Of a DNA stretch of 60,134 nucleotides, positions 8,681-31,854 are shown piece by piece. The DNA is from Odoribacter splanchnicus (GTDB lineage Bacteria; Bacillota; Clostridia; Lachnospirales; Lachnospiraceae): NCBI GenBank assembly GCA_963623435.1, contig CAVFMG010000001.1, positions 1-60,134 on the forward strand, read 5' to 3'. Below the pieces are notes generated by a model. It saw only the letters and a program-made list of their open reading frames with translations, searched no databases and was not told the origin of the DNA. The first letter of the stretch is position 1; the number at the start of each line of letters is the position of its first letter. The position numbers and the translations under genes were made by a program.

Positions 8681-8723
8681 GAAAATTTCTTATCCCATTC
8701 GTTATATATAACAGAAGCAATTC
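8681..8723 (+). promoter_or_regulatory. Repeated island motif copy 1 (GAAAA-N14-CGTTATATATAACAGAAGCAATTC), putative alternative-sigma promoter
   Basis: Same bipartite motif at 9067, 11845 and 15576; lies before the RBS of ORF 8757. Confidence 0.65.
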
Positions 8724-8756
8724 ACAATATAACAGAATGACAAGGAGGAAGGAATT

Positions 8757-9014
8757 ATGGCTTATTGGAATGACAGTGTAATGGAAAATGGTGTAGAGGT
8801 ACATTATAGCTCAGACTGTGAGTTATATCATCTCACAAATTCCGAAACCGGTGAGTATGACGCTAAGATCGATGTTTATCCCGGTCATATCGAGGATTAT
8901 TCCTCGGAAAACAGTTACTGGGATAAGCATGACCATTATCATACGGACAGTTCGGGGAACAGATCAGAAGTACATGGCATGGAGGAAAGAAACTGGGATA
9001 CCAGGCAAAATTAA
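8757..9014 (+). CDS. Hypothetical acidic His/Tyr-rich 85-aa protein
   Basis: Strong RBS AAGGAGG, upstream motif and own terminator. Confidence 0.75.
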   Translation: MAYWNDSVMENGVEVHYSSDCELYHLTNSETGEYDAKIDVYPGHIEDYSSENSYWDKHDHYHTDSSGNRSEVHGMEERNWDTRQN

Positions 9015-9022
9015 TTGTTGGA

Positions 9023-9056
9023 AAGGATCTGACAGAAATGTCAGATCTTTTTTTTA
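9023..9056 (+). terminator. Intrinsic terminator
   Basis: AAGGATCTGACA-gaaa-TGTCAGATCTTT followed by a T-run. Confidence 0.85.
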
Positions 9057-9066
9057 CGCGTTTTCC

Positions 9067-9103
9067 GAAAAATATTCCGTAGATTCGTTATATATCATAG
9101 AAG
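9067..9103 (+). promoter_or_regulatory. Repeated island motif copy 2 (GAAAAATATTCCGTAGATTCGTTATATATC), pointing antisense into the XRE gene
   Basis: Same 19-nt G-to-CG spacing as the other copies. Confidence 0.5.
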
Positions 9104-9112
9104 ATGAAAAAA

Positions 9113-9430
9113 TTATTTTTCTGTCAGGTACCTGATGAAAGAAGAAACAGCGTGAACCTGTTCATCGTTCAGGGAATCGATGGATTCCAGAACCTGTTTT
9201 CTTGCCAGAGAGATGCCTTGATTAGAAAAGATTTCACCCTGACCGTTTTCCAGCCAGTCTTTATTCACATGAAAGACGTTTTCAATCAGCAGCAGGATCC
9301 GGTCGGGCGGGGTTGCCTTGCCGTGCATTATTTTTGAAAAGTAGCCGGGATCAAGATTTATTTTCATGGCAAACTGACGCTGGGAAATATGTAATTCATC
9401 CAAAAGGATTTTTAATCGTTCACTGATCAT
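9113..9430 (-). CDS. XRE-family HTH transcriptional regulator
   Basis: ERLKIL..ISQRQFAMKINLDPGYFSKI..G..VNKDWLENGQGEIF. Confidence 0.92.
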   Translation of the reverse strand: MISERLKILLDELHISQRQFAMKINLDPGYFSKIMHGKATPPDRILLLIENVFHVNKDWLENGQGEIFSNQGISLARKQVLESIDSLNDEQVHAVSSFIRYLTEK

Positions 9431-9451
9431 GATGCTTACCTCACTGGTGAA

Positions 9452-9543
9452 AGCATATCAAAAAATGTTGCCTATGTCAACACGACGAAAGAAGCACACC
9501 TTGACAAATTGCCATAAGCAATCTATATTATTGCTATAAACAA
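9452..9543. promoter_or_regulatory. Divergent sigmaA promoters with three TTGC-N6-CAA operators
   Basis: Minus strand: TTGACA(9480-9475)-17-TATGCT. Plus strand: TTGACA(9501)-17-TATATT. Operators TTGCCTATGTCAA 9468-9480, TTGCCATAAGCAA 9509-9521, TTGCTATAAACAA 9531-9543. Confidence 0.8.
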
Positions 9544-9559
9544 TACGAAAGAGGGGGAA

Positions 9560-9709
9560 ATGATGACAGAAGCACAACAGGCTTTAATAGAGGATATTGA
9601 GAAGATCAAAGACGATGCCACGATTGAAAAAGTGCGGATTTTCATCATGGGTATTTTGGCACAGCAGAGCATATCGGAAAATCAGTGCAATCCGCAGGGC
9701 GAAAAATAA
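9560..9709 (+). CDS. 49-aa small protein (not in ORF track), resembling the XRE C-terminal helix pair
   Basis: RBS GAGGGGG; MMTEAQQALIEDIEKIKDDATIEKVRIFIMGILAQQSISENQCNPQGEK; first ORF after the promoter. Confidence 0.7.
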   Translation: MMTEAQQALIEDIEKIKDDATIEKVRIFIMGILAQQSISENQCNPQGEK

Positions 9710-9739
9710 ACTGTTCAGAAGAAAGGGAAGGGAAAGCAT

Positions 9740-10324
9740 ATGGGTATCCAAAAAGTATATTATGTTCCGAATTATTTAACAGATGAGGCCTGCTGTGCAT
9801 ATTTCGGAGAAGACTATAACTTCTATGAAGGGAATGCGTTTGACTATTCCAGGTATAAAATCCGGGGATGCGTTGCCGGACAGAATTATGAATACATACA
9901 GAAATTTCCCTACATGGCTGATTGTGAAGATTTTAAGTATCCAAACTGCACTGGATATATTTTGGAAAACAAACAGGATAAAGACTGCTTTGATATCTAT
10001 AAAGTAGACGAAACCAAGGACGGAAGGTATTGTGAACTTGTGGGCGACCTTGTCCCCGGAGAGGCAACAGATTCCAGAGGAATACGGCGGAGAGGATATG
10101 ATATTCATGTCTGGAAACCGGAATATGCGGGATGGGCGTGGGTTGGATTTACAGACGGAATCCCTGCAGTGGGGGCAGCCTATGTTCTTCTGATGCGGGA
10201 GGATGAAATTTTCTGGGATCGAAAATTATACTGTGGAGAAAAGTGTTGGAAGGCCGGAGAGCCCAAACCGTCAGGAACCCCGGAGATAGGCACCAGATTC
10301 CGGTGGAGAGACGACAGATTTTAG
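9740..10324 (+). CDS. Hypothetical Tyr/Cys/Trp-rich protein
   Basis: 194-aa ORF with purine-rich RBS, in operon with the rSAM gene; no family recognised. Confidence 0.75.
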   Translation: MGIQKVYYVPNYLTDEACCAYFGEDYNFYEGNAFDYSRYKIRGCVAGQNYEYIQKFPYMADCEDFKYPNCTGYILENKQDKDCFDIYKVDETKDGRYCELVGDLVPGEATDSRGIRRRGYDIHVWKPEYAGWAWVGFTDGIPAVGAAYVLLMREDEIFWDRKLYCGEKCWKAGEPKPSGTPEIGTRFRWRDDRF

Positions 10325-10357
10325 AGACAGGTAAGCGATTTGTGGGAGGGAATAACC

Positions 10358-11668
10358 TTGAACAGAGAGGACTATTTAATCGATTATATAAAAATGGAGA
10401 AAGACTATTGGGCAATTGATATGGGAGAGCGCCTTTTTGTCTTTCATGCATTGAACGGAGAGCCTTTTATCGTCGAAAAAAGTGATCTTGGAGATGATTA
10501 TAAAAATGTTGAATTCGAAGGGATAGATGATTCCGCCGACAAAAGGAAGAAAATCACAGAGGTTTCGGAGCAATATCAGAAGAATTATTTTGGACCGACA
10601 GGAATTGACCTGTCTGTTTCCGAAGTGTGCAATTTGGGATGCCCTATGTGCTTCCATAATGTGGCATTACATAATACGTGCAAAAGAAATATTACGAAGC
10701 TGATGAGTTTTGAAAAGGCAAAGGAGTGGATCGATTATTACATTGAGTATGCCGATGAACACCGGCTGCCGACTTATACATTCCATATCGGATCCGCCGA
10801 ACCTTTTATAAATAAAGAGAATTTGTGGAAGATCATTTCATATATCCATCAGCAGACAAGCGGGCATCCCACGGATATTTTCCTGAACAGCAATCTTACT
10901 TTAATAGAGGAAGAGGATGTTCTTAAGATCAAAAAATACGGGATCCATATTTTCGTGGGAATAGACGGTCTGCAACAGGCGAACGATTCTACCAGAGTCT
11001 ATAAAGCAGACGGACGGGGAACTTTTGAAGATATTATTCAAAAAGTAAAATTATTGATAGCGAATGGCGTGGAAGTTGGAGTAAATATAACTCTGACAAA
11101 CGATAACTTTGAAAAGGTTGATGCAAAAGAAACCGTTGACTTTTTTGCGGAGCTTGGCATCAAAAGTCTGTTGATAGATACCGATGTTGTAACACATATC
11201 GAATATAATACAAAGGAAATTGTAGATAAATTAATGGATTTCACGATGTATTGTGATGAAAAAAATATGATATCCTACGGTTCCTGGAGGATCCCGTTTA
11301 ACATGCTGACAGCGGAGAACTCTGCGACAGAGCCTAAGTCGTTCTGCGCAGCCAGAACGGGAAAAAATATTGTTGTGACACCATCGAAGGGAATTACCTT
11401 CTGCACCTATTCCAGTAAAATCATGACTCCCGAGACGGATTCTCCGAAGGCAGCCCTGGAATTATATACAGAAGAAGTCAGAAAAATGATGAGTGCTACG
11501 CTGCCGGGAAAAGTGGAAAAGTGCAAGGGCTGTGCATTGGAAGGATTCTGCATGGGAGGATGTATGCTCGCACACGAAAACCATGGAGAGAATAACTACA
11601 TGTGCGATATCTATCTGGAGGCAACCAGACGATTAGTGAGATATTATTATTCAAATTATGAAGAATAG
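10358..11668 (+). CDS. Radical SAM / SPASM-domain peptide or protein maturase (TTG start after GGGAGG)
   Basis: CNLGCPMC (CxxxCxxC), IDG..ND..R..GRGTF, SPASM cysteines FC..FC..CKGCALEGFCMGGC..MC. Confidence 0.92.
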   Translation: MNREDYLIDYIKMEKDYWAIDMGERLFVFHALNGEPFIVEKSDLGDDYKNVEFEGIDDSADKRKKITEVSEQYQKNYFGPTGIDLSVSEVCNLGCPMCFHNVALHNTCKRNITKLMSFEKAKEWIDYYIEYADEHRLPTYTFHIGSAEPFINKENLWKIISYIHQQTSGHPTDIFLNSNLTLIEEEDVLKIKKYGIHIFVGIDGLQQANDSTRVYKADGRGTFEDIIQKVKLLIANGVEVGVNITLTNDNFEKVDAKETVDFFAELGIKSLLIDTDVVTHIEYNTKEIVDKLMDFTMYCDEKNMISYGSWRIPFNMLTAENSATEPKSFCAARTGKNIVVTPSKGITFCTYSSKIMTPETDSPKAALELYTEEVRKMMSATLPGKVEKCKGCALEGFCMGGCMLAHENHGENNYMCDIYLEATRRLVRYYYSNYEE

Positions 11669-11700
11669 TAATAAAAGCATGATGGAAGGAGGAAACATTC

Positions 11701-11784
11701 ATGAAGAAAGTAGTGAAAGTGAAAAAAATCAAACTGAAACCGATCGCGCAGATGTGCGGAGGCAGAACCACCTGCTGCAACTAA
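11701..11784 (+). CDS. Putative RiPP precursor peptide MKKVVKVKKIKLKPIAQMCGGRTTCCN (27 aa, not in ORF track)
   Basis: RBS AAGGAGG 7 nt upstream; Lys-rich leader-like half and Cys-containing core; directly after the rSAM gene and before a terminator. Confidence 0.72.
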   Translation: MKKVVKVKKIKLKPIAQMCGGRTTCCN

Positions 11785-11801
11785 ATAATTCGGACAGTGA
11801 G

Positions 11802-11841
11802 ACCGCGGAGTATATGTTTATATATTCCGCGGTTTTCATTT
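11802..11841 (+). terminator. Intrinsic terminator after the peptide gene
   Basis: ACCGCGGAGTATAT-gttt-ATATATTCCGCGGT followed by TTTCATTT. Confidence 0.8.
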
Positions 11842-11844
11842 CCC

Positions 11845-11887
11845 GAAAAATGATTCCCTCATTCGTTATATATAACAGAAGCAATTC
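11845..11887 (+). promoter_or_regulatory. Repeated island motif copy 3
   Basis: 28 bp (11860-11887) identical to 8696-8723; directly before the RBS of ORF 11909. Confidence 0.65.
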
Positions 11888-11908
11888 CATAACGAGGAGG
11901 ACACAGGG

Positions 11909-13102
11909 ATGAACATTATTACAGAGACGAGAGAAAATATTGAAAACTGGTTTGGCAGAAAGCAGAGAAAAGCATATCGGAGAATGCAGGGGGATAATTA
12001 CCGGGGGTATGTGTATCAGCTGACGCTGCCGGATACCGGTATAGAATGTACCGCAGTGATCCGCCTGACGGATCTGAACATGCTGGTGTATGAGCTGTAT
12101 TCTGGAATCCGTGTACTGGATCCGGTATTGATGGCTCCGGTGGCGCTGTATTGCCAGCAGCGTGTGAAGACCGGATTCGGCGGTATGGAGGCAGAGGAGC
12201 TGAGCGGCTGCATCACGTATTGCGCAGAGACTGTATTCCGGGAAAGCGCGGTCAGTGAAGAGACTTTGGAGCTGTATGAAGAGGAAGCCATCCGCACCAT
12301 CTGTGCCCATTATGAGAACCTGAAAGCACTGGCTTCGGGGAGATTTTTGTCACTGGAAGAGCCGGTGGAGGTCGCTTACGCAGCAGAGAAAAAAGTGGAT
12401 ACGGAGGCAGCAGCCGCAGCAATCAGAATCTACCTGGAATCCGAAAACCATAACATTAGGGCAGAGAACCTGAATGCAGATAATGAGAATAAATTCCTGT
12501 GTGAGATCAGAGTCGGCGGAAAACATCTTCTGGTAAATTATGCGGTCTCCGATTGTGGAATCCTGACGCTGACGGGTTACTACGGAACGTCGCAGATGCC
12601 GGTAAAAAAGGAATACCGGTATGCGGTGGCGGAATATCTGAACAGACAGAATTCCACCAATCTGTATGGCATGCTCCGTGTGGGAACAGAAAATGGAGGC
12701 TGGTCCTGCAGCATCTCCACCAGTCTTTTGGACGAGCCTGCCTCAGGGAGAGTCATTTCGAATATGGAGAGAATCCTGATGGAAAACATGACAGACTGCG
12801 CGACAGCAGTAGAACGGTTATCCGCAGGACTTTTGCCCAGTGATGGAAGCCAGGAAAGAGAGTTAAAGAAGCAGATGGAAATGCTGTCGAGCAAACTGCT
12901 GGGAAATGTATTAGGCAATCTTCCCTTTGGAGACGATACCGATGACGAGGAAAAAATCTGTGAAGTGAGTCCGGATAACGATGCGGAAGACAATGACGCA
13001 GATGCTAATGATACAAATGCTAATGATACAGAGGATGACGTTACCATGGACGACTGGTTAAAGCAGCTCTCCCTTCCGGAGCCTGCGCCGGAGGCAGTCT
13101 GA
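11909..13102 (+). CDS. Protein with two putative YbjN / T3SS-chaperone-like domains and an acidic tail
   Basis: Two similar ~140-aa halves; AVAEYLNRQN..YG pattern is YbjN-like; Asp-rich C-terminus. Confidence 0.5.
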   Translation: MNIITETRENIENWFGRKQRKAYRRMQGDNYRGYVYQLTLPDTGIECTAVIRLTDLNMLVYELYSGIRVLDPVLMAPVALYCQQRVKTGFGGMEAEELSGCITYCAETVFRESAVSEETLELYEEEAIRTICAHYENLKALASGRFLSLEEPVEVAYAAEKKVDTEAAAAAIRIYLESENHNIRAENLNADNENKFLCEIRVGGKHLLVNYAVSDCGILTLTGYYGTSQMPVKKEYRYAVAEYLNRQNSTNLYGMLRVGTENGGWSCSISTSLLDEPASGRVISNMERILMENMTDCATAVERLSAGLLPSDGSQERELKKQMEMLSSKLLGNVLGNLPFGDDTDDEEKICEVSPDNDAEDNDADANDTNANDTEDDVTMDDWLKQLSLPEPAPEAV

Positions 13103-13135: not shown

Positions 13136-14902
13136 GTGAAGAAGAATACCATGGATTCCATAGAGTACATACAGAATTATGCTTTTGCGGGGGAAATGAG
13201 CCTGTTAGCGTATTACTACACCGTATTTGTCAGCTTACAGGGATGCACAGCTCCACAGTCACTGCTGATTCTCGAAGTGGCACAGCTCTGCGGGCTGGTG
13301 GTGGATCTGCTGCAGGTGTTCCGGATTCCCAAATGTGGCTGGAGCATTTTAACCACTATGTTTTTCCTGCTTGGCGGATATACGTTTGTGACTTATTACC
13401 GAAATAATCCCGCACTGTACCTAAGCGTTCTGGTGGTGGCAGCAGTCGTGGCTATCGGTCATTCAGCGTGGGTGTTCACGCGGAAAAATAACGCAGAGGA
13501 GGAAATGCAGAAACGTTTCCGATTCAGGATGCGAAAAAGCAGCATGGGTGTGAAGGCGGTAGCAGCAGTGGCGGGAATCTTTTTTATCCTGTGTTCCGCT
13601 GCAATAAAATACATTCCCCAGGCGGAAAATGTGTTATACAGAACCGTGTATACAGATGCGGATGCCCTGGATGCCCACATAGAGGAGCTGCAGAACCTGA
13701 AAGCGGAGAACTATGCTATGTTGACTGTCTCTGAGAAGATAAAGCTGCTGCAGGTGGTCGCGGATATCGAAGGGAGATACCTGGGACTGGATACGAGGAT
13801 CACAGTAGGCTGTTCGGATCTGAAGGAAGATGTTCTGGGATATTACAAAGATTCCACAAAAGAGATTCAGATCGACACGGAATATTTGGATTCCGAGTCC
13901 AGAGAGGTAGTCTGTTTGCTGGCTCATGAGATGTATCATGCGGCGCAGCGACAGTATGCGAGAATCTACGATAAACTGTCACAGGATGAAAAAAAGTCTT
14001 ATTTTCTGACAGAAGCAGCAGAATATGCGGAGGAATTAAAGCATTATAAAAGCGGGGAGGAAGGAGGTGCCTATGAATATTTTTCCTATTATTCCCAGAC
14101 ACTGGAGCGTGAGGCAAGAGCCTACGGACTGGTCAGCGCAGAGCAGATTTTCCAGCGTATCGAGGAGGAATATGATGCAGGCGATGCAGAAGCCGTGGAA
14201 CCGGTACGGGTGGAGGAGAATACACTCACGGCGTTACCGCGCAGTGAGACCTATTACGAGGATGGGGAAGTTACGGAGATTGTGAATTATGCATATGATG
14301 ACAATTTCACTTATAAGGACACGATTCATGTGCGGGAAGATAATTCCGTGACAAAAGTGATCCTGGATGCTGACGGGAACGAACTATTGTCACAGGGAAT
14401 GTTCAGCGGGGGGATCCTGACCAGCACTTATACATATGAATATCGGGAGAACACAGACCGTAAGCAGGTGCAATATTGTTATGAAGGAGAGGGAAAAAAT
14501 TTCTCACGCTTAACAGTTGTATTGTATAATAAATATGGTGATGAGATCTATAAACTGGTGCAGGCGGACAGTGACAGAATCTACGAGTATCGTACCAGCT
14601 ATACCTACGATGACCAGGGGCAGTTAAGTACTAAAAAAGTAGCGTATGCAATGGACGGAGAGGCGGCACATATGACCAGAGAAACCGGTTATTCGTACGA
14701 TGAAAATGGAAGAGTGGAAGAGGAAGTCGTGAAGACCTGCATGGGACTGGATACTTCCGACCCTTCCCATACAGATAAGGTTTGGATCCGCTACGAATAT
14801 GATAATCAGGGAAGAGAGATCCGCCGGGAACAGAGAAGCCAGACACCGTCAGAGGCGGTGTGGGTGTGCGAGACCAGTTATGATGAGGAGGAACGGATAT
14901 GA
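13136..14902 (+). CDS. Membrane-anchored zincin-like metallopeptidase with C-terminal YD/RHS-like repeats
   Basis: N-terminal TM helices; LAHEMYHAAQ..EREA; repeated YxYDxxG motifs (YTYDDQG, YSYDENG, YEYDNQG). Confidence 0.7.
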   Translation: MKKNTMDSIEYIQNYAFAGEMSLLAYYYTVFVSLQGCTAPQSLLILEVAQLCGLVVDLLQVFRIPKCGWSILTTMFFLLGGYTFVTYYRNNPALYLSVLVVAAVVAIGHSAWVFTRKNNAEEEMQKRFRFRMRKSSMGVKAVAAVAGIFFILCSAAIKYIPQAENVLYRTVYTDADALDAHIEELQNLKAENYAMLTVSEKIKLLQVVADIEGRYLGLDTRITVGCSDLKEDVLGYYKDSTKEIQIDTEYLDSESREVVCLLAHEMYHAAQRQYARIYDKLSQDEKKSYFLTEAAEYAEELKHYKSGEEGGAYEYFSYYSQTLEREARAYGLVSAEQIFQRIEEEYDAGDAEAVEPVRVEENTLTALPRSETYYEDGEVTEIVNYAYDDNFTYKDTIHVREDNSVTKVILDADGNELLSQGMFSGGILTSTYTYEYRENTDRKQVQYCYEGEGKNFSRLTVVLYNKYGDEIYKLVQADSDRIYEYRTSYTYDDQGQLSTKKVAYAMDGEAAHMTRETGYSYDENGRVEEEVVKTCMGLDTSDPSHTDKVWIRYEYDNQGREIRREQRSQTPSEAVWVCETSYDEEERI

Positions 14903-15606
14903 GAGCACTTGTGATACCGGATGTTCATTTGAAGCCGTATATGTTCGCGGAAGCCGCCGAACGGATGAGAAGGGGCGTTGCGGACCGCGCAGTGTGCCTG
15001 ATGGATATCCCGGATGACTGGGGCAGAGAATATGATCTGGAACTGTATGTACAGACCTTTGACGCGGCAATCTCTTTTGCAAAGGAATTTTCCGATACCC
15101 TGTGGTGCTATGGGAATCATGATCTGTGCTATCTGTGGAATGAGCGGGAATCGGGATACAGCCGGGCAGCCGCCTATACGGTCAGAAATAAACTGGAGGA
15201 ACTAAAAGATGCATTGCCGTCGGAGAACCAGATCCGTTACATACATAGAATCGATGATGTATTGTTCTGCCATGGCGGCATCTTACAGGCATTCGTTGAG
15301 GAAAATGTGGAAAATACAGGCTCCGTGGACGAAACCCTCGCAGAGATAAATGCCATGGGACCGGAGCAGCTATGGTGCAGTGCCAGCCCTATCTGGTACC
15401 GCCCGCAGGACAGCCGGGAGCTTATGTATGGAGAAGGCAGTCTCTTGCAGGTCGTGGGACATACACCGGTGAAGAAAATATATAAGAGCGGCAACGTGAT
15501 CTCCTGTGATGTATTTTCCACCTATCGGGACGGACGCCCCATCGGAACACAGGAATATCCGGTGATCGACACAGTGAAAAAATCTCTTTCCATTCGTTAT
15601 ATATAA
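14899..15606 (+). CDS. Calcineurin-like metallophosphoesterase
   Basis: PDVH, MDIPD, GNHD, CHGG and VGHT motifs; ATGA overlap with the upstream gene. Confidence 0.9.
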   Translation: MRALVIPDVHLKPYMFAEAAERMRRGVADRAVCLMDIPDDWGREYDLELYVQTFDAAISFAKEFSDTLWCYGNHDLCYLWNERESGYSRAAAYTVRNKLEELKDALPSENQIRYIHRIDDVLFCHGGILQAFVEENVENTGSVDETLAEINAMGPEQLWCSASPIWYRPQDSRELMYGEGSLLQVVGHTPVKKIYKSGNVISCDVFSTYRDGRPIGTQEYPVIDTVKKSLSIRYI

Positions 15607-15611
15607 CAGAA
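15576..15611 (+). promoter_or_regulatory. Repeated island motif copy 4
   Basis: GAAAAAATCTCTTTCCATTCGTTATATATAACAGAA before the RBS of ORF 15634. Confidence 0.65.
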
Positions 15612-15633
15612 AACAATATGGGAGGAGAAAAAT

Positions 15634-16641
15634 ATGGAGAGCTATGGAAGAGAATATCCCCTGCAGCTGATCCGGGATTGGGACAAATCTATGGTGGGGC
15701 AGCGGGAGTATAAGGAAGCGTTGGCGAGAAATCTGTATCGTTATGTGGTAAAAGGAGAAGTCCCTTCCTCGATGCTGGTCATGGGACCGACGGGTTCCGG
15801 CAAGACATTCCTGCCGACCTTGTTCAAGAAGTCAAAACTTTGCCCTCCGCAGTTTACCGTATTTATAAAAAATATCTCCTGCCTGACCATGGAAGGGGTA
15901 AAAGGAGAGGATCTGGAGGAAATATTTAAGGAATACAAAACCCTGTGTCAGGCACAGGGAAACCGTGGATATCGTGGCCTGATCTACCTGGATGAGGTGG
16001 ATAAACTGATCACTTCCCAGGAAAGCGCCGTCGAATTTGTGGCAGATCAGGGGCGGATGGTACAGCACCAGCTGATGCAGATCCTGGATGGCGGAGAAAT
16101 GGCAGGGGTGCCGCTTAACAAGATTATGTTTGTATTCGGCGGAGCATTTTATCAGCTTCGTGACAGAAAAAAGGAGACCGAGAACTTTCGTCCCATTGGC
16201 TTTGGAGCGGAAAGCATCCGGAAACCTGTGTTATTAAAGGATAACACCATCAGAGAGAAACTGACAGAGATCGGATTTCAGAGGGAATTCTTAGGACGCA
16301 TCGGACAGATTGTCCAGCTGCAGTCACTGAACGAGGCGGAACTGAAAGCCCTTTTCCTACATCCCACAAAGGGGGTACTCAGCAGGCTGCAGAAAGAATA
16401 CGAGGCAGATGGAATCCGGCTGGAAGTGGAAGATGCCGTGGTAGATGATATCATCCGGTCTGTGGTACAGGAGAATCTCGGAGCCAGATCCCTTCCGAAT
16501 GTCATGGAGCAGCTGTTAAGTGGGGCGTGGATCCGGTGCATTGAGGAAGGTTATGATAAAATTATTATTAATAAAGGAACTTTATGCGGAGAAGGCGTGA
16601 AATTTTCCAAGGAGAATCATTATATAAGTATGAGTGTATGA
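15634..16641 (+). CDS. ClpX-like AAA+ ATPase lacking the N-terminal zinc-binding domain
   Basis: VGQ, GPTGSGKT, IYLDEVDK, VQHQLMQILDG, FVFGGAF, IGF loop, EFLGRI, LGARSL. Confidence 0.85.
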   Translation: MESYGREYPLQLIRDWDKSMVGQREYKEALARNLYRYVVKGEVPSSMLVMGPTGSGKTFLPTLFKKSKLCPPQFTVFIKNISCLTMEGVKGEDLEEIFKEYKTLCQAQGNRGYRGLIYLDEVDKLITSQESAVEFVADQGRMVQHQLMQILDGGEMAGVPLNKIMFVFGGAFYQLRDRKKETENFRPIGFGAESIRKPVLLKDNTIREKLTEIGFQREFLGRIGQIVQLQSLNEAELKALFLHPTKGVLSRLQKEYEADGIRLEVEDAVVDDIIRSVVQENLGARSLPNVMEQLLSGAWIRCIEEGYDKIIINKGTLCGEGVKFSKENHYISMSV

Positions 16642-20800: not shown

Positions 20801-20862
20801 GTTGTCTCATTCGTTAAAGAAGTATACAGATAAACAAAGCACCCCAAAGGAGGAAACAAATT

Positions 20863-21579: not shown

Positions 21580-21591
21580 GAGGAAATAGAA

Positions 21592-23388: not shown

Positions 23389-23468
23389 TGTGAAAAATAA
23401 ATTTTTCACACGCAAATTTGTGCCTGCGGCCCAAAGTTTGCAGGTTATGGAAAGGCATGGGGATTAGC

Positions 23469-24851
23469 ATGGAAAAAGAAAAGAAAATGATAATAAAAAA
23501 AGGGGAAATTCTTACTGACGCAAATCGTAGACAATATATTATAGGGGAGCGGTTGGGAACAGGTGGACAGGCACAGGTGCGCCGCGTAGTTTTATCCTCT
23601 ACCGGAGAAGAATTTGCCTGTAAAATCTATAAAGAAGATCCTACGGGCATTCAGAAAAATATTGAACAGCTGATAAACTTAGGTCCTCTCAAAGATAAAG
23701 ACGGAAATGTATTAACGGAAGTGGTATCTCCGAAAATTCTGGTAACACAGGATGGAAAAGAGGGCTTTGGTTACATCATGGATCTGGTGGATCTGGATGA
23801 TTACGCCACCATTCCACAAGCATGGTCAAACCCTGCGAAATGCCCTTCTGTCAAAGCAATCTGCCGGATTATACAGAATCTTGCGAGAGTATTCGAGGCG
23901 ATCCACCGCAGCTATGGCATGTGCTATAAGGATATTAACGAGGGCAACATCTATTTTAATCCGAAAACGGGTGATATCAGGGTAATTGATAACGATAACA
24001 TAGGAATCAAAGACACCACAAGTATTCTCGGGACGCCGGGTTATCGTGCACCGGAGGTGGTGCTGGGAGATTTGCCGGATAACTGTTCGGACCGCTTCTC
24101 CCTGGCTGTTTTTGCCTACCGTCTCCTGTGCGGAGGCTATCCCTTCGACGGTCCCTTTACCAATCACTATTGTAAAGTTCACGGACAGGGAATTGCAACC
24201 GGCGCGGAGAGTGTAGTGTATGGATCGGAGGCTGTATTTACATGGCATCCAACGGATAAACGAAACTCCATAGCCCTTCTTTCGGATGTGAGTGCGAAGG
24301 GACAAACACAGTACTGGATGAATCTCCCTAAGGAGATCAAAGAACTTTTTATGAGCACGTTTGTGACGCATCTGGCAAAGGACAAACGGGAAGGCCGTCC
24401 GGATAACGAAGACTGGATCGAGACCTTCCGCAGGATCGAGCAGACGCTGGTCAAGTGCCCGCATTGCGGAACGGTAACTTTTAGCGACAGCGGACGTTGC
24501 TTTGAATGTGACGGAGATCTCGGAACAGATGTGGCTTACAGACATCATGCGCTGTTTAATGTCCTGCGGGCAGGAGAATCGTCTCTGAAGTTAAAGGTGC
24601 AGCCCGGGGATGTATACACGGTAGGGAAGTTGATGAAAGGGATGCCGGATGACCGTATTTTCCGGATCCTATACAATAAAAAATACGACATGATAGGGAT
24701 CAGTAATCTCTCGACGCTCACCTGGACTGCCATCTACGGTGACGGCAAGCGGCAGAAGGTGGCTCCGGGTAAGACGGTACAGTTAAAAAAAGCAATGCGT
24801 ATCGCAGTGATGCCGAGAACCCTGCAGATCAACGTAGTAGATGCAAAGTAG
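23469..24851 (+). CDS. Ser/Thr protein kinase with Zn ribbon and C-terminal beta domain
   Basis: GTGGQA, ACKIY, YKDINEGN, IDNDN, GTPGYRAPE, DRFSLAV, CPHC..CFEC. Confidence 0.9.
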   Translation: MEKEKKMIIKKGEILTDANRRQYIIGERLGTGGQAQVRRVVLSSTGEEFACKIYKEDPTGIQKNIEQLINLGPLKDKDGNVLTEVVSPKILVTQDGKEGFGYIMDLVDLDDYATIPQAWSNPAKCPSVKAICRIIQNLARVFEAIHRSYGMCYKDINEGNIYFNPKTGDIRVIDNDNIGIKDTTSILGTPGYRAPEVVLGDLPDNCSDRFSLAVFAYRLLCGGYPFDGPFTNHYCKVHGQGIATGAESVVYGSEAVFTWHPTDKRNSIALLSDVSAKGQTQYWMNLPKEIKELFMSTFVTHLAKDKREGRPDNEDWIETFRRIEQTLVKCPHCGTVTFSDSGRCFECDGDLGTDVAYRHHALFNVLRAGESSLKLKVQPGDVYTVGKLMKGMPDDRIFRILYNKKYDMIGISNLSTLTWTAIYGDGKRQKVAPGKTVQLKKAMRIAVMPRTLQINVVDAK

Positions 24852-24864
24852 AGGTGAAGTGTAA

Positions 24865-25676: not shown

Positions 25677-26357
25677 ATGAAGAAAATCAGACGGGACAGA
25701 TTTCAACTGATCGTAGGCTGCATACTGCTGTTAGCGGCGGGCTGCGGATGCTATAACCGCTTATTCTACGGGCAGCTCCCTGCGGAAGCAGGAGTCATAT
25801 CCGTACAGGAACAGCAGTCCTGGGCATTGTGGAGCAGCGTGGGAGCGCTGCTTCTGGGACTTGGCTTCTGGGTCGTGCTGCAGAGAGAACAATGTGTCCT
25901 GCCGGCATTGTATCGTGCGGAAGTCGTCCTGATGGCGGTGTTCGTCATGCCTTCCGTGGCAGTTGACAGTATTGCGAAGATCTGTGCACTGTCAGGACTG
26001 CAGGTCACACAGGCGCAGGTGAATGAGATCTACCGGTACAGTATGATCGCCCTTATCTATATGGCAGTTTTTTCCATATATTTTACATGGTTATACAGAG
26101 AACGGGAAGATACCGGGACGGTGAGAGCCATCGTCCGCAGATACCGTAGATTCGGCAGATCAAGAATACAGGCGGCTCCTGTATGTGTGATAATTGCGAC
26201 ACATATCCTGGGAATTCTGGGAACGGTAATGCTGCTGCTTTTAAACATCAGCGCGCCCTGGAATTATCTGTTCCAGGGCGTGGGATTGCTCCTTTTTTAT
26301 TGTGTGACGCGGATATTTATGCCAGCAGACTCTGATGAAACTTTTCATCTTCTTTGA
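25677..26357 (+). CDS. Hypothetical integral membrane protein (about 6 TM)
   Basis: RBS AAAGGA; several hydrophobic segments. Confidence 0.7.
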   Translation: MKKIRRDRFQLIVGCILLLAAGCGCYNRLFYGQLPAEAGVISVQEQQSWALWSSVGALLLGLGFWVVLQREQCVLPALYRAEVVLMAVFVMPSVAVDSIAKICALSGLQVTQAQVNEIYRYSMIALIYMAVFSIYFTWLYREREDTGTVRAIVRRYRRFGRSRIQAAPVCVIIATHILGILGTVMLLLLNISAPWNYLFQGVGLLLFYCVTRIFMPADSDETFHLL

Positions 26358-27231
26358 GAAGATGGATCGCAGAGCGCTTGATCGAACTGATCCTCTTGGT
26401 ATCTGCGCAACTTAAATCAGCGAGAGCCTCTTCTAACGGGAAGCTGTCTAAATTAAGAGAAGGACAACTGTTCCGTATAATGGTGCGCAAAGCTGCCGGG
26501 GAGATCTCCTGCGCGAAGGATTTGATCGCTTTCGGCATTTCACCGCAACCCAGACCCAGGAGAAGGATGCACAATTTCTCAGAGGCTGATAATTTATTTT
26601 TCTGCAGAAGCTGAGCAAGGGCATCACTCTCACACAGATAAGAGCAGGTATTTTCGATCAGCTGTGTGTTGTCACAGAGCAGTTCGCCAAGTGTGAGAGC
26701 ATCCTCATCGGCTACCGGCTCATCCATCGGATTTGTATAGGGAGTCTTCTGAACTTTCAGTACAGTATCTAAGAGATGATTGTTCAGATACATATATAAG
26801 CTGGGCAGCAGAAAGTCCTCTTTTACGTCTAAAAGGACATCAATACGCAGTCTGCCGGCATTTTTACGGGATTTATCGGTAAAACCGGAGAACAGCCAGA
26901 GCCATGTCTCGCTCATGATATCAGCCGGCTCCATGCCCATGGACTGGAGGGATGCCAGAAGAGAGCTTGTATAGGCGGAGAGCTGTGTCCTGGCAAATTT
27001 TTCCTCGGAATCCTGATGGGATAACATGAATCTCATGCCTTCTGTTGCGGGCATTAAAAAAAAGTACAAAGAAGAGGAAAATTTTTCATAAAGGTCAGGG
27101 TTGAATTCCTTTATTTCCATCACGGAAGAAGTACGCTGTTTGCGGATCTTACGCATAATCTCCATCAGATCCTCCTGAACTTTGATTTTCTTTTCGAAAG
27201 CACTGGTTGTATTTTTGATTGTATTTTTCAT
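26317..27231 (-). CDS. Divergent sigma70-family factor (putative)
   Basis: Region-2-like ADIMSETWLWL and YMYLNNHLLD; MDEPVADEDALTLGELL; region-4-like KLSASEKLCILL..KRISSIKRSAIHLLK; RBS AAGGAGG. Confidence 0.6.
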   Translation of the reverse strand: MKNTIKNTTSAFEKKIKVQEDLMEIMRKIRKQRTSSVMEIKEFNPDLYEKFSSSLYFFLMPATEGMRFMLSHQDSEEKFARTQLSAYTSSLLASLQSMGMEPADIMSETWLWLFSGFTDKSRKNAGRLRIDVLLDVKEDFLLPSLYMYLNNHLLDTVLKVQKTPYTNPMDEPVADEDALTLGELLCDNTQLIENTCSYLCESDALAQLLQKNKLSASEKLCILLLGLGCGEMPKAIKSFAQEISPAALRTIIRNSCPSLNLDSFPLEEALADLSCADTKRISSIKRSAIHLLKEDEKFHQSLLA

Positions 27232-27304
27232 AAGTTTGTCCTCCTTGGTTATGAACGGTTGTAGTGGTGTTTTGTTTTGATGGGTTTATATTACGAAATA
27301 GCCG

Positions 27305-27354
27305 GTTGGACCGGAGGCTGGTTGTGAGTTGGATGGAGTTGGATGGAGTTGGAT
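27305..27354. promoter_or_regulatory. 10-bp-periodic direct repeats GAGTTGGAT x3 plus an extra GTTGGA between divergent genes
   Basis: Copies at 27326, 27336 and 27346; GTTGGA at 27305. Confidence 0.6.
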
Positions 27355-27391: not shown

Positions 27392-29509
27392 ATGGCATAT
27401 AAAATCCGGACAGAGGGAAGCGTTTATCTGAATAAAGAAAAAGGGATCCGGCTGGAATTTGCACCGGATCCGGAAGAGGCGAAGATCGTCTATGAGCAGA
27501 GGGGTACAGAGGGAAAGCTCTCTGATTTTAAGATTGCCAAGGTGACGAAACAGGTAAGGAAATTCCTCCTGCTATTATTGTCATATCCCGGAAAGCCATT
27601 GGACAACGTAGGTCTTTGCGAGGCACTGGATACGGTACGTGCGAATACGGATGGTGCCTGCAGGGAGAATGCAAGATATGCCAGGAAACTTTTGAATCAA
27701 TGCATTAACGACGATGAGGATGCGAATGAGGGAGTGCCGCAGATCGAAGGGAGTAGAGTAATTGCCGGATATGGTGTCCATACCATCAAACTGCCGGAAG
27801 AAATCGCAGCGGCAAAGACCTGGGTGGATGAGTGTCCGGAGGGGCTTGATCTGGCGAAGAATTACTGGAGACAGTATTCTGTGGTTCGTCCGTATAAAAA
27901 TGTGGGGCGCGGAGGATATCAGGACAATATCACTTTCCATGAGGTGTATCGTATTCCTAAGCTGCAGCCGGATACTTTTGAAGCAGGCAAAACATGGTGG
28001 ATGAGTGAGCTTGTGGGAAAGGGGAACCTGGTCTATGTGGAAGCACCCAACGGCTATGGAAAATCCACGCTGTTACAGGGGATTTTGCTGTCCAGTCTGT
28101 ATGGCTGCCAGAGATTATCAGAGAGTGGTTCTGCGGCGGAAAGCGCTCTGAAAATGTATGAAGAGCTGGCAAAATTCCATAAATTGCCGGAGGGGGCACT
28201 GGTGCTGTTACTACAGGCGGAAGATTTAGACTGTACGGGCGGAGACGGTATCGAATGCCTCTATGCGTCGAATCCGCTGCATAAGACCTACGATTACTCA
28301 CAATTTGAGGAAATTGTGAGTGATTTTAATGCGAAGAGAAAACTGTTTGTATTGATCGACGGTTATGATGAAGCAGAGCCGGAGAAACAGGAGCAGGTGG
28401 TAGAATGGATCGAGCGGGTGAGCGATGCGGAGAGCCAACGGGATACCTGCGGAAAAGCAGTGTTCCTGATTGCAGGACGACCTCTCTACGAAGGGGAAGG
28501 GCAGAATCCTATCCTGGGCAGCAGACTGCAGGTGCAAAGATGGCATCTGGCACCGCTGGACCCTGCGGAAGATGCAGAAGGAATCGAGCAGTTATTGACG
28601 AAGTATGTCGGACAACTGCGGAACCGAAAGCCGGATACCGTGGAGCGGACGAAGGAGCGTATCCGGTCGAACCCTTACCTGCGCAGGCTGCCCGTGACGC
28701 CTTTTATTCTGGTGAAGCTGGTGGAGGATTGCAGCTGTAGTAATCTGGCACCCCATGAGATCATTGACAGAGTCATTGATCAGCTTATGAAACGACAGAA
28801 ACGTTTCGGACTGAAGCAGCAGGAATTGTTTTCCTATAAGCTTCTGCACGAGGAACTGGCATATAAGATGCTGTCCTGTGGGGAAGAAGGGGTGGATTAC
28901 GACTATTTCTGCCGCTACGAGCGCAGCTGTTATGACCGGGTGGATGCCTATTTTTCTAAAAAATGGGGAACGGAACTGAAGACGATTACCCCGGAGGATA
29001 TTTTCACCATCACGGGTCTGTTACAGGAAGATGCCGAAGGCAGAGTTGGATTCTTATGTTCGTATGTATTGATAAGGGAATTTGCCGCGAGGAAGCTGAC
29101 CCGCCTGATGGAAGGGGAAACCTGCGAGGTTTTACTTGCGCAGCTAAACGAGATTCCCTGCGAGTATCGTTATGAGCTTCTGACCATGTCCATGGTGCAG
29201 CTGATGAAAAATGACTGTTATTGTTATGGAGGGTATTTTTTCCATGGCTTGTCTCCGTATGAAAAAGAGGATGCCCTGACGGTGTTTGAAAATTATATGC
29301 TGGATCGTTACGCGCAGAGCAATGATGTATCGGAAAAAGAAGCGATCAGCAAAGCCGTCGCGCTGCTTCTCTCCAATGCTTACGGAAATATTCCTCTGAC
29401 AAACGTTAATAATAGTGCAGGGGAAGAACAGGATATGAAGATGCGAAAGGCACTGCAACAGATCCTACAGGAGACCCCGCCCACGGAAGAAGGGGAGAAT
29501 AGCCTATGA
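27392..29509 (+). CDS. NACHT/STAND NTPase with putative N-terminal winged-helix domain
   Basis: VTKQVRKFLLLLLSYPGKPL (OmpR-like wHTH), Walker A APNGYGKST, Walker B VLIDGYDE, IAGR, TPF. Confidence 0.72.
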   Translation: MAYKIRTEGSVYLNKEKGIRLEFAPDPEEAKIVYEQRGTEGKLSDFKIAKVTKQVRKFLLLLLSYPGKPLDNVGLCEALDTVRANTDGACRENARYARKLLNQCINDDEDANEGVPQIEGSRVIAGYGVHTIKLPEEIAAAKTWVDECPEGLDLAKNYWRQYSVVRPYKNVGRGGYQDNITFHEVYRIPKLQPDTFEAGKTWWMSELVGKGNLVYVEAPNGYGKSTLLQGILLSSLYGCQRLSESGSAAESALKMYEELAKFHKLPEGALVLLLQAEDLDCTGGDGIECLYASNPLHKTYDYSQFEEIVSDFNAKRKLFVLIDGYDEAEPEKQEQVVEWIERVSDAESQRDTCGKAVFLIAGRPLYEGEGQNPILGSRLQVQRWHLAPLDPAEDAEGIEQLLTKYVGQLRNRKPDTVERTKERIRSNPYLRRLPVTPFILVKLVEDCSCSNLAPHEIIDRVIDQLMKRQKRFGLKQQELFSYKLLHEELAYKMLSCGEEGVDYDYFCRYERSCYDRVDAYFSKKWGTELKTITPEDIFTITGLLQEDAEGRVGFLCSYVLIREFAARKLTRLMEGETCEVLLAQLNEIPCEYRYELLTMSMVQLMKNDCYCYGGYFFHGLSPYEKEDALTVFENYMLDRYAQSNDVSEKEAISKAVALLLSNAYGNIPLTNVNNSAGEEQDMKMRKALQQILQETPPTEEGENSL

Positions 29510-31854
29510 GTATGGGATATTATTTGCAGAAGCTGATAGAGAAGTGCAATAAATTTGATATCGATGAGATTCCTGCGGCTGCGGGGCTGGAGTTCGACGA
29601 AGAACTGACGCTGGATCAGATCTATGTGGATTACACGACATTTTTGGGAATGTCGGATCTGCAGAAGACTCTCCTGATGGACAGACTGCCGCTCAGAGAG
29701 GATGAAGTTCCGGTGGTGATGCTGACGGCACCTGCGGGAGGCGGGAAAACAGTGTTACTGAAACGTTGTGCCACTGCGCTTGCAGAGGATAATCTGTTTG
29801 GAACTGCAGCAGCACCGGAAGAGATAGAAGGATCAAGATTATCAGCAATGCCTACATTGCTAGAGGATATTTTCCACAATCGGGTGGTCTCCGGCAGATA
29901 TTTGCCGGTCTGGATCTCGCCGGAAGAGATAGAAGATCTTGAAAATGTGAATCTGCAGGAGATTATGCAGGCAGCAATGACTAAGATCGCTCCGGGGATG
30001 ACATTGCCGGAAGAGGGCAGTTGGACTTATGTGCTCTTGGTGGATGGAATGGAAAAGTTCCGGAATGCAGAACTCAGAGACCGCTTTTTCTATCTTCTGA
30101 TAGAATTTTACAGAGAGCACCGGGATGCCATTTTTCTTATGTCTGCGAGAACGGAAGACTATGAAGATCTCTGCGACGATATCTATCTGAAACCATTAAA
30201 GGCATGGAGAGAGCGTGTTGTTTTTGCGGAGATTAAGATTCCGGGACTGTTTGGGCAATGGGCGTTTGAAGATATTATCAGATTATTTGCATGCAAATGG
30301 CTGCGAATCCTGAATCCGCACGGTGCCAGCAGCTTGAAAGTCATAAAGGATGCAGGGAAAATTGCGGAAGACTTGCGTCGGACAGGGTTGAAAGACTTTT
30401 TAAACACACCGTTTGAGATCACCAACTGGCTCTTACTGTATCTGCGGGATAATTGTCTTCCGGAAAACGAGAGCGCTATCGCAGCCAGAGAAATAGGGTT
30501 ACTGTTGGAGAGAAAACGATCTGACAAATATCACATTCTCGATGTAAAACGGCATCTGGCAAGAATTGCGTATGCGGCATCCAGGCATTCTATGCATTAT
30601 CGTCATCCGATGATGGATTTTAAAGAAATATATAAGACGGATACGATGGACCGAGATTCGCTGCGGGATATTATTTACCGGACGGACTGCGATCTGGGGC
30701 GCTATTTTGAGTACCGACAGGATACTACCGTAGAGGCAATAGATGAGTTCATAAAATATCTGGTGAGTACCGGAATTTTGTGCCGACCGGGAGGAATGAT
30801 GAGCGGGGGATATACTTTCAGCAATTACCGGTATCAGGTATATCTGACGGTCTTCTGCCTGACGCAGAACCTGTTTACACGGGAGGAAAGCCGGGATCCG
30901 GCAATGCACATTATATATTATTCCGGGTTTAAAAAGTGGACCGGAAGCAATGAACTCTGGAGACGGATCATTTTAAGCCTGGCAGAACAGAATACGGAAT
31001 TGCGGAACCATGTGATACAGGCAGCTTTATATGTCGCAGGTTCAAAATATTGGGATGTGTTTCCTCTCGATTGTCTGCTGGATTTGTTGGCTAGATACGG
31101 TATGGCGGTTACGGAGGAAGCATACCGGGACAGCTGCCAGATGCTGTGTATCCGGACGGAGGTCGAAAATGACCTTCATAAGCAGGATGTAGAGGACAGA
31201 CGGAAGCTTCTGTCGGAGAAAATTTACGAAATTTACAGCATCATACACAATAACAGCAGAGAACGGAACGAATATCTGCTAAAGTGTATTACGGAAGGAT
31301 ATGACAGGTGTGCTTCGGAGGAAGAGCGGCAGAAGTTTTCGGAGTATGCAGTACAAGTGTCGGAATTTCTGAAGAATACCCTGGAATTACAGGAAATTGA
31401 CGAGGCGATGGGGATGCATCAGGAGAAATGGGAGAAGATCGAGAAAGCCCTCGAAAGCGACGGCACGGAATTTACCGTCTGCGGGTATCTCTACAAAATA
31501 CTGAAAGAGGAATGCACGAAGGAGGAAAGACAGCTGTTTTTGCAGCAGCTGATCGAACTGGATCTCATACAGACCAGAGAGAAGGAATACACTGCTTTCA
31601 ACGAGAAGGATCTGGAAGATTTAACATGCTGGAGCATCGGCTACAAGGTAGAACAGAAGATGCAGCAGTTGAAAAAGACAAATCCCCCGGAGAACTTCTA
31701 TGCGGAACTGGAGGAATTCCTGTTTGAAAACAGTGAGCTTGACACCGAGAGAGCTCAGAGCATTGCCCTGTATCTCTGTCTGACTTATGAAGAAGAGCCT
31801 GCCTTGGAGGAGCTGGAATCATTTAAAAGGCTGGCAGATAAATTCGGGCTGTAA
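29506..31854 (+). CDS. Second NACHT/STAND NTPase, translationally coupled
   Basis: LDQIYV, APAGGGKT, LLVDGMEK, MSAR, NTPF, LARIAY, YTF..YQVYL; ATGA overlap. Confidence 0.75.
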   Translation: MSMGYYLQKLIEKCNKFDIDEIPAAAGLEFDEELTLDQIYVDYTTFLGMSDLQKTLLMDRLPLREDEVPVVMLTAPAGGGKTVLLKRCATALAEDNLFGTAAAPEEIEGSRLSAMPTLLEDIFHNRVVSGRYLPVWISPEEIEDLENVNLQEIMQAAMTKIAPGMTLPEEGSWTYVLLVDGMEKFRNAELRDRFFYLLIEFYREHRDAIFLMSARTEDYEDLCDDIYLKPLKAWRERVVFAEIKIPGLFGQWAFEDIIRLFACKWLRILNPHGASSLKVIKDAGKIAEDLRRTGLKDFLNTPFEITNWLLLYLRDNCLPENESAIAAREIGLLLERKRSDKYHILDVKRHLARIAYAASRHSMHYRHPMMDFKEIYKTDTMDRDSLRDIIYRTDCDLGRYFEYRQDTTVEAIDEFIKYLVSTGILCRPGGMMSGGYTFSNYRYQVYLTVFCLTQNLFTREESRDPAMHIIYYSGFKKWTGSNELWRRIILSLAEQNTELRNHVIQAALYVAGSKYWDVFPLDCLLDLLARYGMAVTEEAYRDSCQMLCIRTEVENDLHKQDVEDRRKLLSEKIYEIYSIIHNNSRERNEYLLKCITEGYDRCASEEERQKFSEYAVQVSEFLKNTLELQEIDEAMGMHQEKWEKIEKALESDGTEFTVCGYLYKILKEECTKEERQLFLQQLIELDLIQTREKEYTAFNEKDLEDLTCWSIGYKVEQKMQQLKKTNPPENFYAELEEFLFENSELDTERAQSIALYLCLTYEEEPALEELESFKRLADKFGL

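Follow-up and report, generated by a model that had tools for sequence, protein, structure and literature searches.

The described system that the locus reported here works most like is AfsR-afsS of Streptomyces, in which AfsR (SARP-NB-ARC-TPR) is presented, in the accessible part of its source, as an NLR-related activator of afsS (bioRxiv 10.64898/2026.09.02.748808). Our locus lies in a 60,134-nucleotide stretch (the window, meaning the whole stretch of DNA that was analysed), which is contig C1 of a 2.83-Mb Lachnospiraceae genome (G000, 93% complete), and its core is an orphan sigma-like gene divergent from two genes for NACHT-like ATPases. As far as the available parts of the AfsR-afsS sources go, the likeness lies in a probable N-terminal OmpR-type domain on a STAND ATPase, a Ser/Thr kinase nearby, direct repeats at one-turn intervals that cover the -35/spacer region of an adjacent regulatory gene, and the two-step control that we propose. 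Unlike AfsR, the locus has NACHT rather than NB-ARC, no BTAD, no TPR sensor that could be seen and a second, coupled NACHT gene; it carries four repeats instead of two, its presumed target is not the small AfsS peptide but a sigma70-family protein of full length that has a promoter of its own, and its host belongs to the Lachnospiraceae, not the Actinomycetes. It is therefore not a SARP system, for lack of a BTAD, and its target has the size of a true sigma factor. We regard the locus as a variant of known logic, built from unclassified families and narrow in range.

The best reading of the data, to which we give a probability of about 45%, is an AfsR-like cascade running from a NACHT activator to a private sigma factor and from there to cargo genes. 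The NACHT pair would be the switch: ATPase 2, which lacks an output domain, and the C-terminal part of ATPase 1 would sense a cytoplasmic signal, upon which ATPase 1 would bind phased CCAAC repeats through its winged-helix domains and recruit RNA polymerase to a sigma promoter devoid of a -35 box, as AfsR does at afsS. The new sigma factor would bind core polymerase, read GAAAA-N13-CGTTATAT promoters, and switch on an 85-amino-acid orphan, an operon for YbjN-like, zincin-like and phosphoesterase proteins and a ClpX paralogue, perhaps also, weakly, a TerY-P-like operon. The output would be proteolysis and dephosphorylation of cellular targets. The sigma factor might further amplify itself, only while the activator is bound, because the -10-like box upstream of its gene resembles the -10 half of the cargo motif; sigma-A could also use this box (TAATAT). 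A phage or other invader as the trigger is a tentative suggestion. Gene layout, motif, repeats, co-occurrence and purifying selection can be read from the sequences; the sigma fold, its polymerase binding and the NACHT fold come from models, and the links of the cascade are inferred.

CalpS is reportedly a further defence-linked sigma factor besides CASP-sigma and DdvS-DdvA. Judging from the available parts of their descriptions, these three share with our locus a dedicated alternative sigma factor, few private promoters within the locus itself and partly function-unassigned genes; however, they are extracytoplasmic function (ECF) sigma factors freed from an anti-sigma by proteolysis, whereas here we see neither an anti-sigma nor a CRISPR system, and control seems to be exerted on transcription. 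CASP-sigma of type III-E CRISPR has three motif sites inside its own locus (PMC10028731) and DdvS-DdvA forms a defence-linked sigma regulon (PMC11506125), according to the accessible portions of both papers. With bNACHT and Avs4 defence proteins, as the available part of PMC13581612 describes them, the locus shares a NACHT-like core, Avs4/NLRP fold matches, a location in a variable region and, in ATPase 1, the hhhhDGhDE form of Walker B. That portion of the same survey places STAND transcriptional regulators in separate, non-immune clades and notes no sigma link (PMC13581612). In contrast to bNACHT and Avs proteins, the N-terminal output domain here is a probable DNA-binding domain instead of a nuclease, TIR or SIR2 domain, no TPR, LRR or WD40 sensor was seen, and no PADLOC Avs or NACHT model matched.

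To our knowledge, the bacterial NACHT proteins examined to date work by means of effector enzymes, and the defence sigma factors known so far are released by proteases. If our reading is true, a NACHT protein that switches on its own sigma factor joins both themes and provides a bacterial parallel to transcription-activating NLRs. The system is compact and fully specified, with activator, repeats, sigma factor, promoter consensus and targets all predicted and natural alleles at hand for swaps, and the orthogonal sigma-promoter pair could serve in gut Clostridia; its limits are those of one clade of one genus, in which it is often eroded. We consider unlikely, taken as a whole, the further-reaching claim that a bacterial NLR pair acts here through transcription of a private sigma factor that amplifies itself, not through cell death or anti-sigma cleavage, that this factor reprogrammes the cell against an invader through a ClpX paralogue, a protease, phosphatases and a kinase, and that winged helix plus repeat and sigma plus promoter are separately swappable modules. 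A preliminary description of the locus knew of no system with this layout, and none was found in the literature searched, which left most subscription papers outside its reach.

The sigma-like orphan and the NACHT pair

The regulatory core comprises the following features (positions are those of the window).
26317..27231, minus strand: orphan sigma70-family factor (very probable), 304 amino acids, with region 2, the 3.2 finger and a putative region 4, and without the region 3 domain
27286..27295, minus strand: -10-like box CGTAATATAA upstream of the sigma gene, without a GAAAA box
27305..27352, minus strand: phased CCAAC direct repeats
27392..29509, plus strand: ATPase 1, a STAND ATPase of the NACHT type; its first 130 or so residues are variable and probably form a winged-helix domain of OmpR type
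29506..31854, plus strand: NACHT-like ATPase 2, without N-terminal effector and with a helical C-terminus; stop-start overlap with ATPase 1

The minus-strand sigma gene is thus divergent from both NACHT-like genes, as the preliminary description had it; ATPase 1 probably starts at the ATG at 27392, not at the TTG at 27329.

The orphan is very probably a sigma factor of the sigma70 family, as modelling and profile comparison indicate. A VIA fold search with its model (mean pLDDT, the model's confidence score, 62) returned sigma factors in 27 of 50 rows and chains of transcription complexes in 7 more, and the matches span both the N-terminal and the C-terminal half. The host encodes 10 Sigma70_r2 proteins, and profile comparison with these sigma factors was colinear (E 0.0013 vs 0.4 for the control), covering region 2 and the 3.2 finger and running into the beginning of region 4. 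When residues 10-200 were modelled together with residues 1-326 of host beta-prime, the complex scored 0.79 (best of 3 controls, 0.00), a mark reached by 116 of 157 solved pairs and 2 of 215 mismatched pairs; the runs agreed in 67% of contacts or more, and the partner pLDDT was 71 or higher. In this model a region 2 fold, which identifies the sigma70 family, sits on the clamp helices of beta-prime, contacted by D104, E108 and L111 of the orphan. Because sigma-clamp complexes have already been solved, the result indicates likeness, not binding. Residues 200-304, which contain an insertion, align to sigma region 4 structures (Z 4.4-5.2) on a par with non-sigma helix-turn-helix (HTH) proteins.

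Sequence families recognise the orphan poorly. Neither Pfam Sigma70_r2 nor r4 matched above cut-off in any of 18 aligned members, and sequence searches against PDB gave nothing significant (SigW at E 1.1); its atlas neighbours are unnamed clusters (0.96) and one Sigma70_r2 cluster (PF04542, 0.95). The family numbers 35 proteins by word search, in 4 clusters at 50% identity, and a profile search of 1.84 billion representatives yielded 4 true relatives; a fifth match was dropped as a false match on fibronectin repeats. No relative was found in viral contigs (0 of 41 candidate stretches), and 7 viral motif matches were discarded for want of homology to the island. The gene is under purifying selection (ratio of non-synonymous to synonymous substitution rates, dN/dS, 0.16-0.28). 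It does not have the properties of a group 4 (ECF) sigma factor, being 304 and not ~200 amino acids long and monocistronic, with only a -10 half upstream and no co-transcribed gene.

NACHT and STAND proteins are defined by Walker A, a Walker B of the form hhhhD[GAS]hDE, a sensor-1 strand and a helical domain. Both ATPases carry Walker A, NACHT-like Walker B and sensor-1 sequences: APNGYGKST, LIDGYDE and LIAGR, respectively, in ATPase 1, and APAGGGKT, LVDGMEK and FLMSAR in ATPase 2. The model of ATPase 1 is of low confidence (mean pLDDT 45); its fold matched Avs4, NLRP2 and NLRP3 (Z 8.1-8.3) and, equally well, Cdc6/Orc1. The N-terminal domain is the variable part of the ATPase 1 family and was modelled as strands followed by three helices (pLDDT 55-74). 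Against the host's 12 OmpR-type domains, its 130 residues gave a match at E 0.0036 (controls, E 0.16-0.40) and 9% probability. The winged helix of the preliminary description therefore has a weak OmpR-type profile match in its favour, and the 9% probability and the lack of any Pfam Trans_reg_C match among ATPase 1 members against it. No BTAD was matched in 9 of 9 ATPase 1 members, and just ~80 residues are left for one before the Walker A strand. Fragments of ATPase 2 are frequent among cluster members.

Phased repeats at the probable sigma promoter

Phased repeats between the sigma and NACHT genes had been noted before, and they are unique: the three CCAAC at 10-nucleotide spacing form the sole such triple in the genome. 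Relative to the -10-like box, the window has repeats at -57, -47, -37 and -14, the last starting 14 nucleotides upstream of the box, and its relatives have repeats (CCAA[CG]) at -47, -37, -26 and -14. Those at -47, -37 and -14 are fixed in all four loci, that at -26 is present in three of the four, and that at -57 is confined to the window. The box is identical in 4/4 loci, and the sigma promoter has no -35 box and no sigma-A consensus of any kind. SARP repeats, in the accessible part of their source, are spaced 11 bp apart over a poor -35, the 3' repeat lying 8 bp from the -10 element (PMC10936776). The same hallmark, one-turn direct repeats just upstream of the target's -10, is present here with respect to a -10 box that is itself predicted.

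Allele identity across the loci is 48-98% for the winged-helix domain, 33-100% for the sigma factor and about 90% for the NACHT core (89-93% in all four loci). By repeat sequence, the window groups with L008, whose winged-helix domain is 90% and sigma factor 54% identical to its own, and L006 groups with L007 (winged-helix domain 51% identical to the window's, sigma factors 87-93%). The repeats thus track the winged-helix allele and not the sigma allele, as a binding pair predicts, yet this is one exchange of adjacent DNA. We judge it probable that the winged-helix domain binds the CCAAC repeats, and somewhat less surely, although still on the likely side, that this binding activates the sigma gene.

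The same repeats admit another form of control, in which the sigma factor does read the motif and the winged helix represses the shared region or its own gene until the signal arrives, or the NACHT protein or the membrane protein encoded next to the sigma gene acts as an anti-sigma. In favour of it, the repeats are placed between two divergent starts and extend over the sigma promoter's spacer, the locus has no other evident anti-sigma gene, and the convergent membrane gene shares 41 nucleotides with the 3' end of the sigma gene. That gene is absent from L008, however; the lack of a -35 box or sigma-A consensus fits the need of an activator, and AfsR and other STAND regulators that carry a DNA-binding domain at the N-terminus act as activators. 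We therefore consider this alternative improbable and keep the activator cascade. The membrane protein (25677-26357) has a weak match to Bfi1 immunity proteins (E 1.4e-4, far under the cut-off).

The promoter-like motif and its cargo

The module is spread over two variable slots, holB-pheS (8677-17049) and pheT-TetR gene (20617-31854), between which the host pheST operon sits. The regulon called dispersed in the preliminary description is thus split between the two slots flanking pheST and is not genome-wide. The motif copies are as follows.
8681..8723, plus strand: copy 1, with a GAAAA box, a 13-nucleotide spacer to CGTTATATAT and a AACAGAAG tail
9067..9109, plus strand: copy 2, facing the 3' end of an XRE gene in antisense, or bereft of its own gene
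11845..11887, plus strand: copy 3
15576..15618, plus strand: copy 4, overlapping the 3' end of the phosphoesterase gene
20806..20816, plus strand: incomplete copy that consists of the -10 half and follows the pheT terminator (20772-20799)

The motif GAAAAW-N10-ATTCGTTATATAT occurs four times in the window (8681, 9067, 11845 and 15576) and not once in any of 100 window shuffles; ATTCGTTATATA occurs four times in the whole 2.83-Mb genome, always at this locus. A matrix trained on the four copies scores them at 37.7-40.4 bits, which is circular, and the next genome site at 20.1. Copies 1, 3 and 4 stand 39-57 nucleotides upstream of a start codon with a ribosome-binding site and lead, respectively, the orphan, the YbjN-like/zincin/phosphoesterase operon and the ClpX paralogue, near none of which was a sigma-A consensus promoter found. 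These are the placements given in the preliminary description, which had missed copy 2, pointing antisense into the XRE 3' end. Copy 2 is not a clean cargo promoter because the cassette behind it has strong sigma-A-type promoters of its own, and the XRE/radical-SAM genes are probably a separate cassette. Among 20 distinct copies (the window plus 17 chosen homologous loci), both boxes were constant and the spacer variable, in a comparison whose selection filter fixed part of the core. To judge by its sequence, the motif looks like a two-part promoter, and the sigma factor likely reads it.

We find it very improbable that the 43-nucleotide motif is instead a recombination or cassette-boundary repeat that shuffles cargo. 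Such a role would suit the tail shared beyond the -10 half (copies 1 and 3 are 86% identical across 43 nucleotides, tail included), the 12-bp palindrome and the strain-variable cargo order. However, deletion joints fall at differing places downstream of the motif and none within it, no recombinase was noted in the region, and a pair of boxes held at constant distance by a spacer of free sequence, followed by a ribosome-binding site, has the anatomy of a promoter.

The proposed cargo genes, weaker candidates included, are these.
8757..9014, plus strand: orphan of 85 amino acids, acidic and His-rich, cargo of copy 1
11909..13102, plus strand: YbjN-like protein, 397 amino acids, possibly with two YbjN-like domains and an acidic tail
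13136..14902, plus strand: membrane-anchored zincin-like protein (HEMYH) with YD/RHS-like repeats
14899..15606, plus strand: calcineurin-like metallophosphoesterase (PF00149, E 7e-08)
15634..16641, plus strand: ClpX paralogue
20863..24851, plus strand: TerY-P-like triad of vWA (20863-21579), PP2C (21592-23388) and Ser/Thr kinase with zinc ribbon (23418-24851)
24865-25596, plus strand: transglutaminase-like protein
25677-26357, plus strand: membrane protein, overlapping the sigma gene 3' end

All island genes examined are under purifying selection (dN/dS 0.05-0.5). That the cargo consists of protein-modification enzymes, as first described, agrees with Pfam or NCBIfam matches for the vWA, PP2C, zinc-ribbon kinase, transglutaminase-like, metallophosphoesterase and ClpX-like proteins. 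The YbjN label has an atlas lead (0.84) and no Pfam match, and we keep it as a lead only. The zincin-like protein gave sub-threshold SprT-like and RHS matches and has a YD repeat, and the 85-amino-acid orphan (dN/dS 0.22 vs G282) had no Pfam, NCBIfam or PADLOC match. The ClpX paralogue (dN/dS 0.05-0.06) has no N-terminal zinc domain, retains Walker A/B and the IGF loop, and has the pore loop GVKG, the two host copies having GYVG and GYIG; from the altered pore loop, missing zinc domain and kept IGF loop we infer that it may deliver a different set of substrates to ClpP. A toxin-antitoxin-like pair separates the phosphoesterase gene from motif copy 4 in G282 and L044. The triad shows the composition that defines TerY-P, a vWA, a PP2C and a kinase with a zinc ribbon in one operon, and PADLOC recognised TerY for the vWA only (E 9e-07), besides generic kinase matches. 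According to the available part of PMC11090510, the order and the C-terminal position of the zinc ribbon are those of described TerY-P triads, and modules of this kind have been reported to act as anti-phage systems on their own. Unlike those, the locus adds a transglutaminase-like and a membrane gene, and the triad is accessory here. A defence role of the locus is plausible from context only.

Distribution among relatives

The preliminary description had named co-occurrence of the sigma-like gene, NACHT, triad and motif as a check. Among 269 genomes of the genus, the sigma gene was found in four (G000, G146, G282 and G284) and ATPase 1 in the same four without exception, head to head in all four loci. 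A short-pattern scan of 185,579 species genomes returned three further sigma loci, those of the same three genomes. The two most distant sigma relatives on long contigs (33-36% identity) lie on contigs of the same lengths (105150 and 7739) as those of NACHT relatives, which is indirect evidence of pairing. The L008 pheT is 98.7% identical to the window's, as is holB of the L006 and L007 genomes at 98.5%. The YbjN-like protein is present in 4/269 genomes (G000, G282, G284 and G231) and the orthologous PP2C in 3/269 (G000, G282 and G284), two further PP2C matches at 26-29% having been dropped as distant. Since the TerY-P triad is absent from one of the four sigma-NACHT loci, we take it as accessory. 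The ClpX paralogue, sought in five genomes, was found in G282 and G284 and not in G146, G022 or G283. Intact multi-unit cargo is limited to three genomes with near-identical sigma factors.

The motif pattern was found in 11 of the 269 genomes (4 copies each in G000 and G282, 2 each in G284 and G022, and seven singletons), and the reversed-control pattern in 20; at least two copies occur in only 4/269. Motif use by seven other genus members was rejected, all seven matches being intragenic. The motif is thus at chance level in other genus members, which means that no common host sigma factor uses it. This bears on a rival account in which the locus grew by accretion without a shared circuit: the slots flanking pheST would be insertion hotspots, the sigma-NACHT unit would be real and have other or lost targets, and the motif would be read by another factor, either a host ECF or SigI-like sigma factor or a dimeric regulator on the GTTATATATAAC palindrome. 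Relatives do hold unrelated cargo in these slots (ECF/anti-sigma pairs, toxin-antitoxin pairs, transporters), the motif occurs without the sigma gene in G022, G231, G245 and G143 and the sigma gene without the motif in G146, and the host has its 10 Sigma70_r2 proteins to offer. On the other hand, the motif is found nowhere else in the host genome, the XRE gene was not found at the locus in G022, G282 or G231, the holB-linked ECF gene of some relatives has no close copy in G000, and 4/5 sigma-less motif copies deviate from the strict pattern. XRE and holB-linked ECF as motif readers were both rejected on these distributions. The strict pattern fits 10 of 11 copies in sigma-bearing genomes and 1 of 5 in sigma-less ones, a tally counted after the fact among genomes that are kin and not independent. 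Accretion seems to us an unlikely alternative to the cascade.

Several observations weigh against the cascade. For the proteins, the best VIA match of the sigma model (Z 6.3) is below the tool's clear level and alone not decisive, neither the sigma model nor the ATPase 1 model had a Foldseek match in PDB at E 0.001, and Pfam NACHT matches were sub-threshold only (9/9 members of one ATPase, 5/8 of the other). The winged-helix call is weak at its 9% probability, and the domain lies outside what the fold search tested; no TPR, LRR or WD40 family matched in the NACHT pair, whose C-termini are helical, and no PADLOC model marked the sigma factor, the NACHT proteins or the cargo core as defence. For the DNA sites, the match of repeats and winged helix comprises two alleles of adjacent DNA, which linkage alone could yield, and the repeats, 40 nucleotides from the NACHT start, could be an autoregulatory site. 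At the TerY-P site only 11 nucleotides are shared with the motif (CTCATTCGTTA, 2 copies in the genome), the T-run of the pheT terminator occupies the position of the -35 box, and the matrix score is -8.8 bits. What the preliminary description called a partial motif before this operon is therefore a -10 half with no -35 box, kept in L006 and L007; regulon membership is weak, and the operon is a doubtful target.

The distribution adds to this side of the balance. All carriers belong to one 17-genome clade whose members are 86% or more identical in DNA around holB at that end of the locus, so their co-occurrence is not independent and shared island history explains much of it. The preliminary description would have yielded to a motif abundant in genomes lacking the sigma gene, an outcome that is touched upon but not clearly seen: the motif is at chance level in the rest of the genus, but G022, G231, G245 and G143 keep copies without the sigma gene, most of them changed or leading damaged genes and one leading an intact gene. 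In G231, which is 96% complete and gave no sigma or NACHT match, both the YbjN-like gene (dN/dS 0.21), led by a motif that carries one change, and the phosphoesterase gene are intact, and G154 keeps the phosphoesterase without the motif. In G146 (79% complete), with a divergent sigma gene and both NACHT genes, no motif, cargo or TerY-P was found. G231 and G146 are the clearest counter-examples. A metagenome motif scan listed at least 120 loci, of which 30 were island-related; the rest had no homology, bar two with an unrelated dehydrogenase match only. Among the matches listed, 24 of the 30 island-related loci retain motif copies in a relic layout, in which the orphan is broken and the 194-amino-acid gene of the XRE cassette is reduced to a fragment, and 7/7 relic loci that pass pheT have a scar and no sigma-NACHT block. 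Among the 13 clade members in which the sigma gene is missing, G022, G179 and G255 also have a scar of the ATPase 2 end after pheT, and G248 keeps a piece of the 194-amino-acid gene; the stretches examined in G007, G245 and G182 end before passing pheT. In this clade the module thus appears to be old and to have undergone repeated loss.

In six unrelated metagenome contigs (L010, L014, L018, L019, L122 and L094), a motif match is followed by a ribosome-binding site and a start codon; these may be chance matches or promoters of other sigma factors of similar specificity.

Several clade members carry an ordinary ECF sigma gene with a probable anti-sigma gene after holB, under a different promoter-like sequence; it is absent from the window's genome. 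The holB-pheS slot of many relatives, not the window, also holds a pair of HTH-nucleotidyltransferase and HEPN/DUF86-like genes, which is probably a toxin-antitoxin system. The sites are as follows.
ECF sigma: L144 1769-2305; L148 9025-9561; L188 9343-9879; G154, G248 and G018
HTH-nucleotidyltransferase/HEPN pair: L147 1705-2608; L148/L149; L150 8802-9600; L188 12867-13340; L044 5149-5947

The probably separate cassette in the holB-pheS slot of the window (whole region 9113..11784) consists of the following.
9113-9430, minus strand: XRE HTH gene, divergent from the radical-SAM cassette
10340-11668, opposite XRE: radical SAM/SPASM enzyme, preceded by a 49-amino-acid open reading frame (ORF) and a 194-amino-acid orphan
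11701-11784: Cys-rich peptide of 27 amino acids, at the end of the cassette

The enzyme and the basic Cys-rich ORF (10340-11784) are likely a maturase and precursor of a ribosomally synthesised and post-translationally modified peptide, under every NCBIfam cut-off. Before pheS, 16660-17050 holds a strong sigma-A-type promoter and a long leader that resembles a T-box riboswitch. Between pheT and the vWA gene (20622-20765), and again at about 23380-23490, lies a ~145-nucleotide dispersed repeat with inverted ends, of which related genomes have dozens of copies each and L007 a stub.

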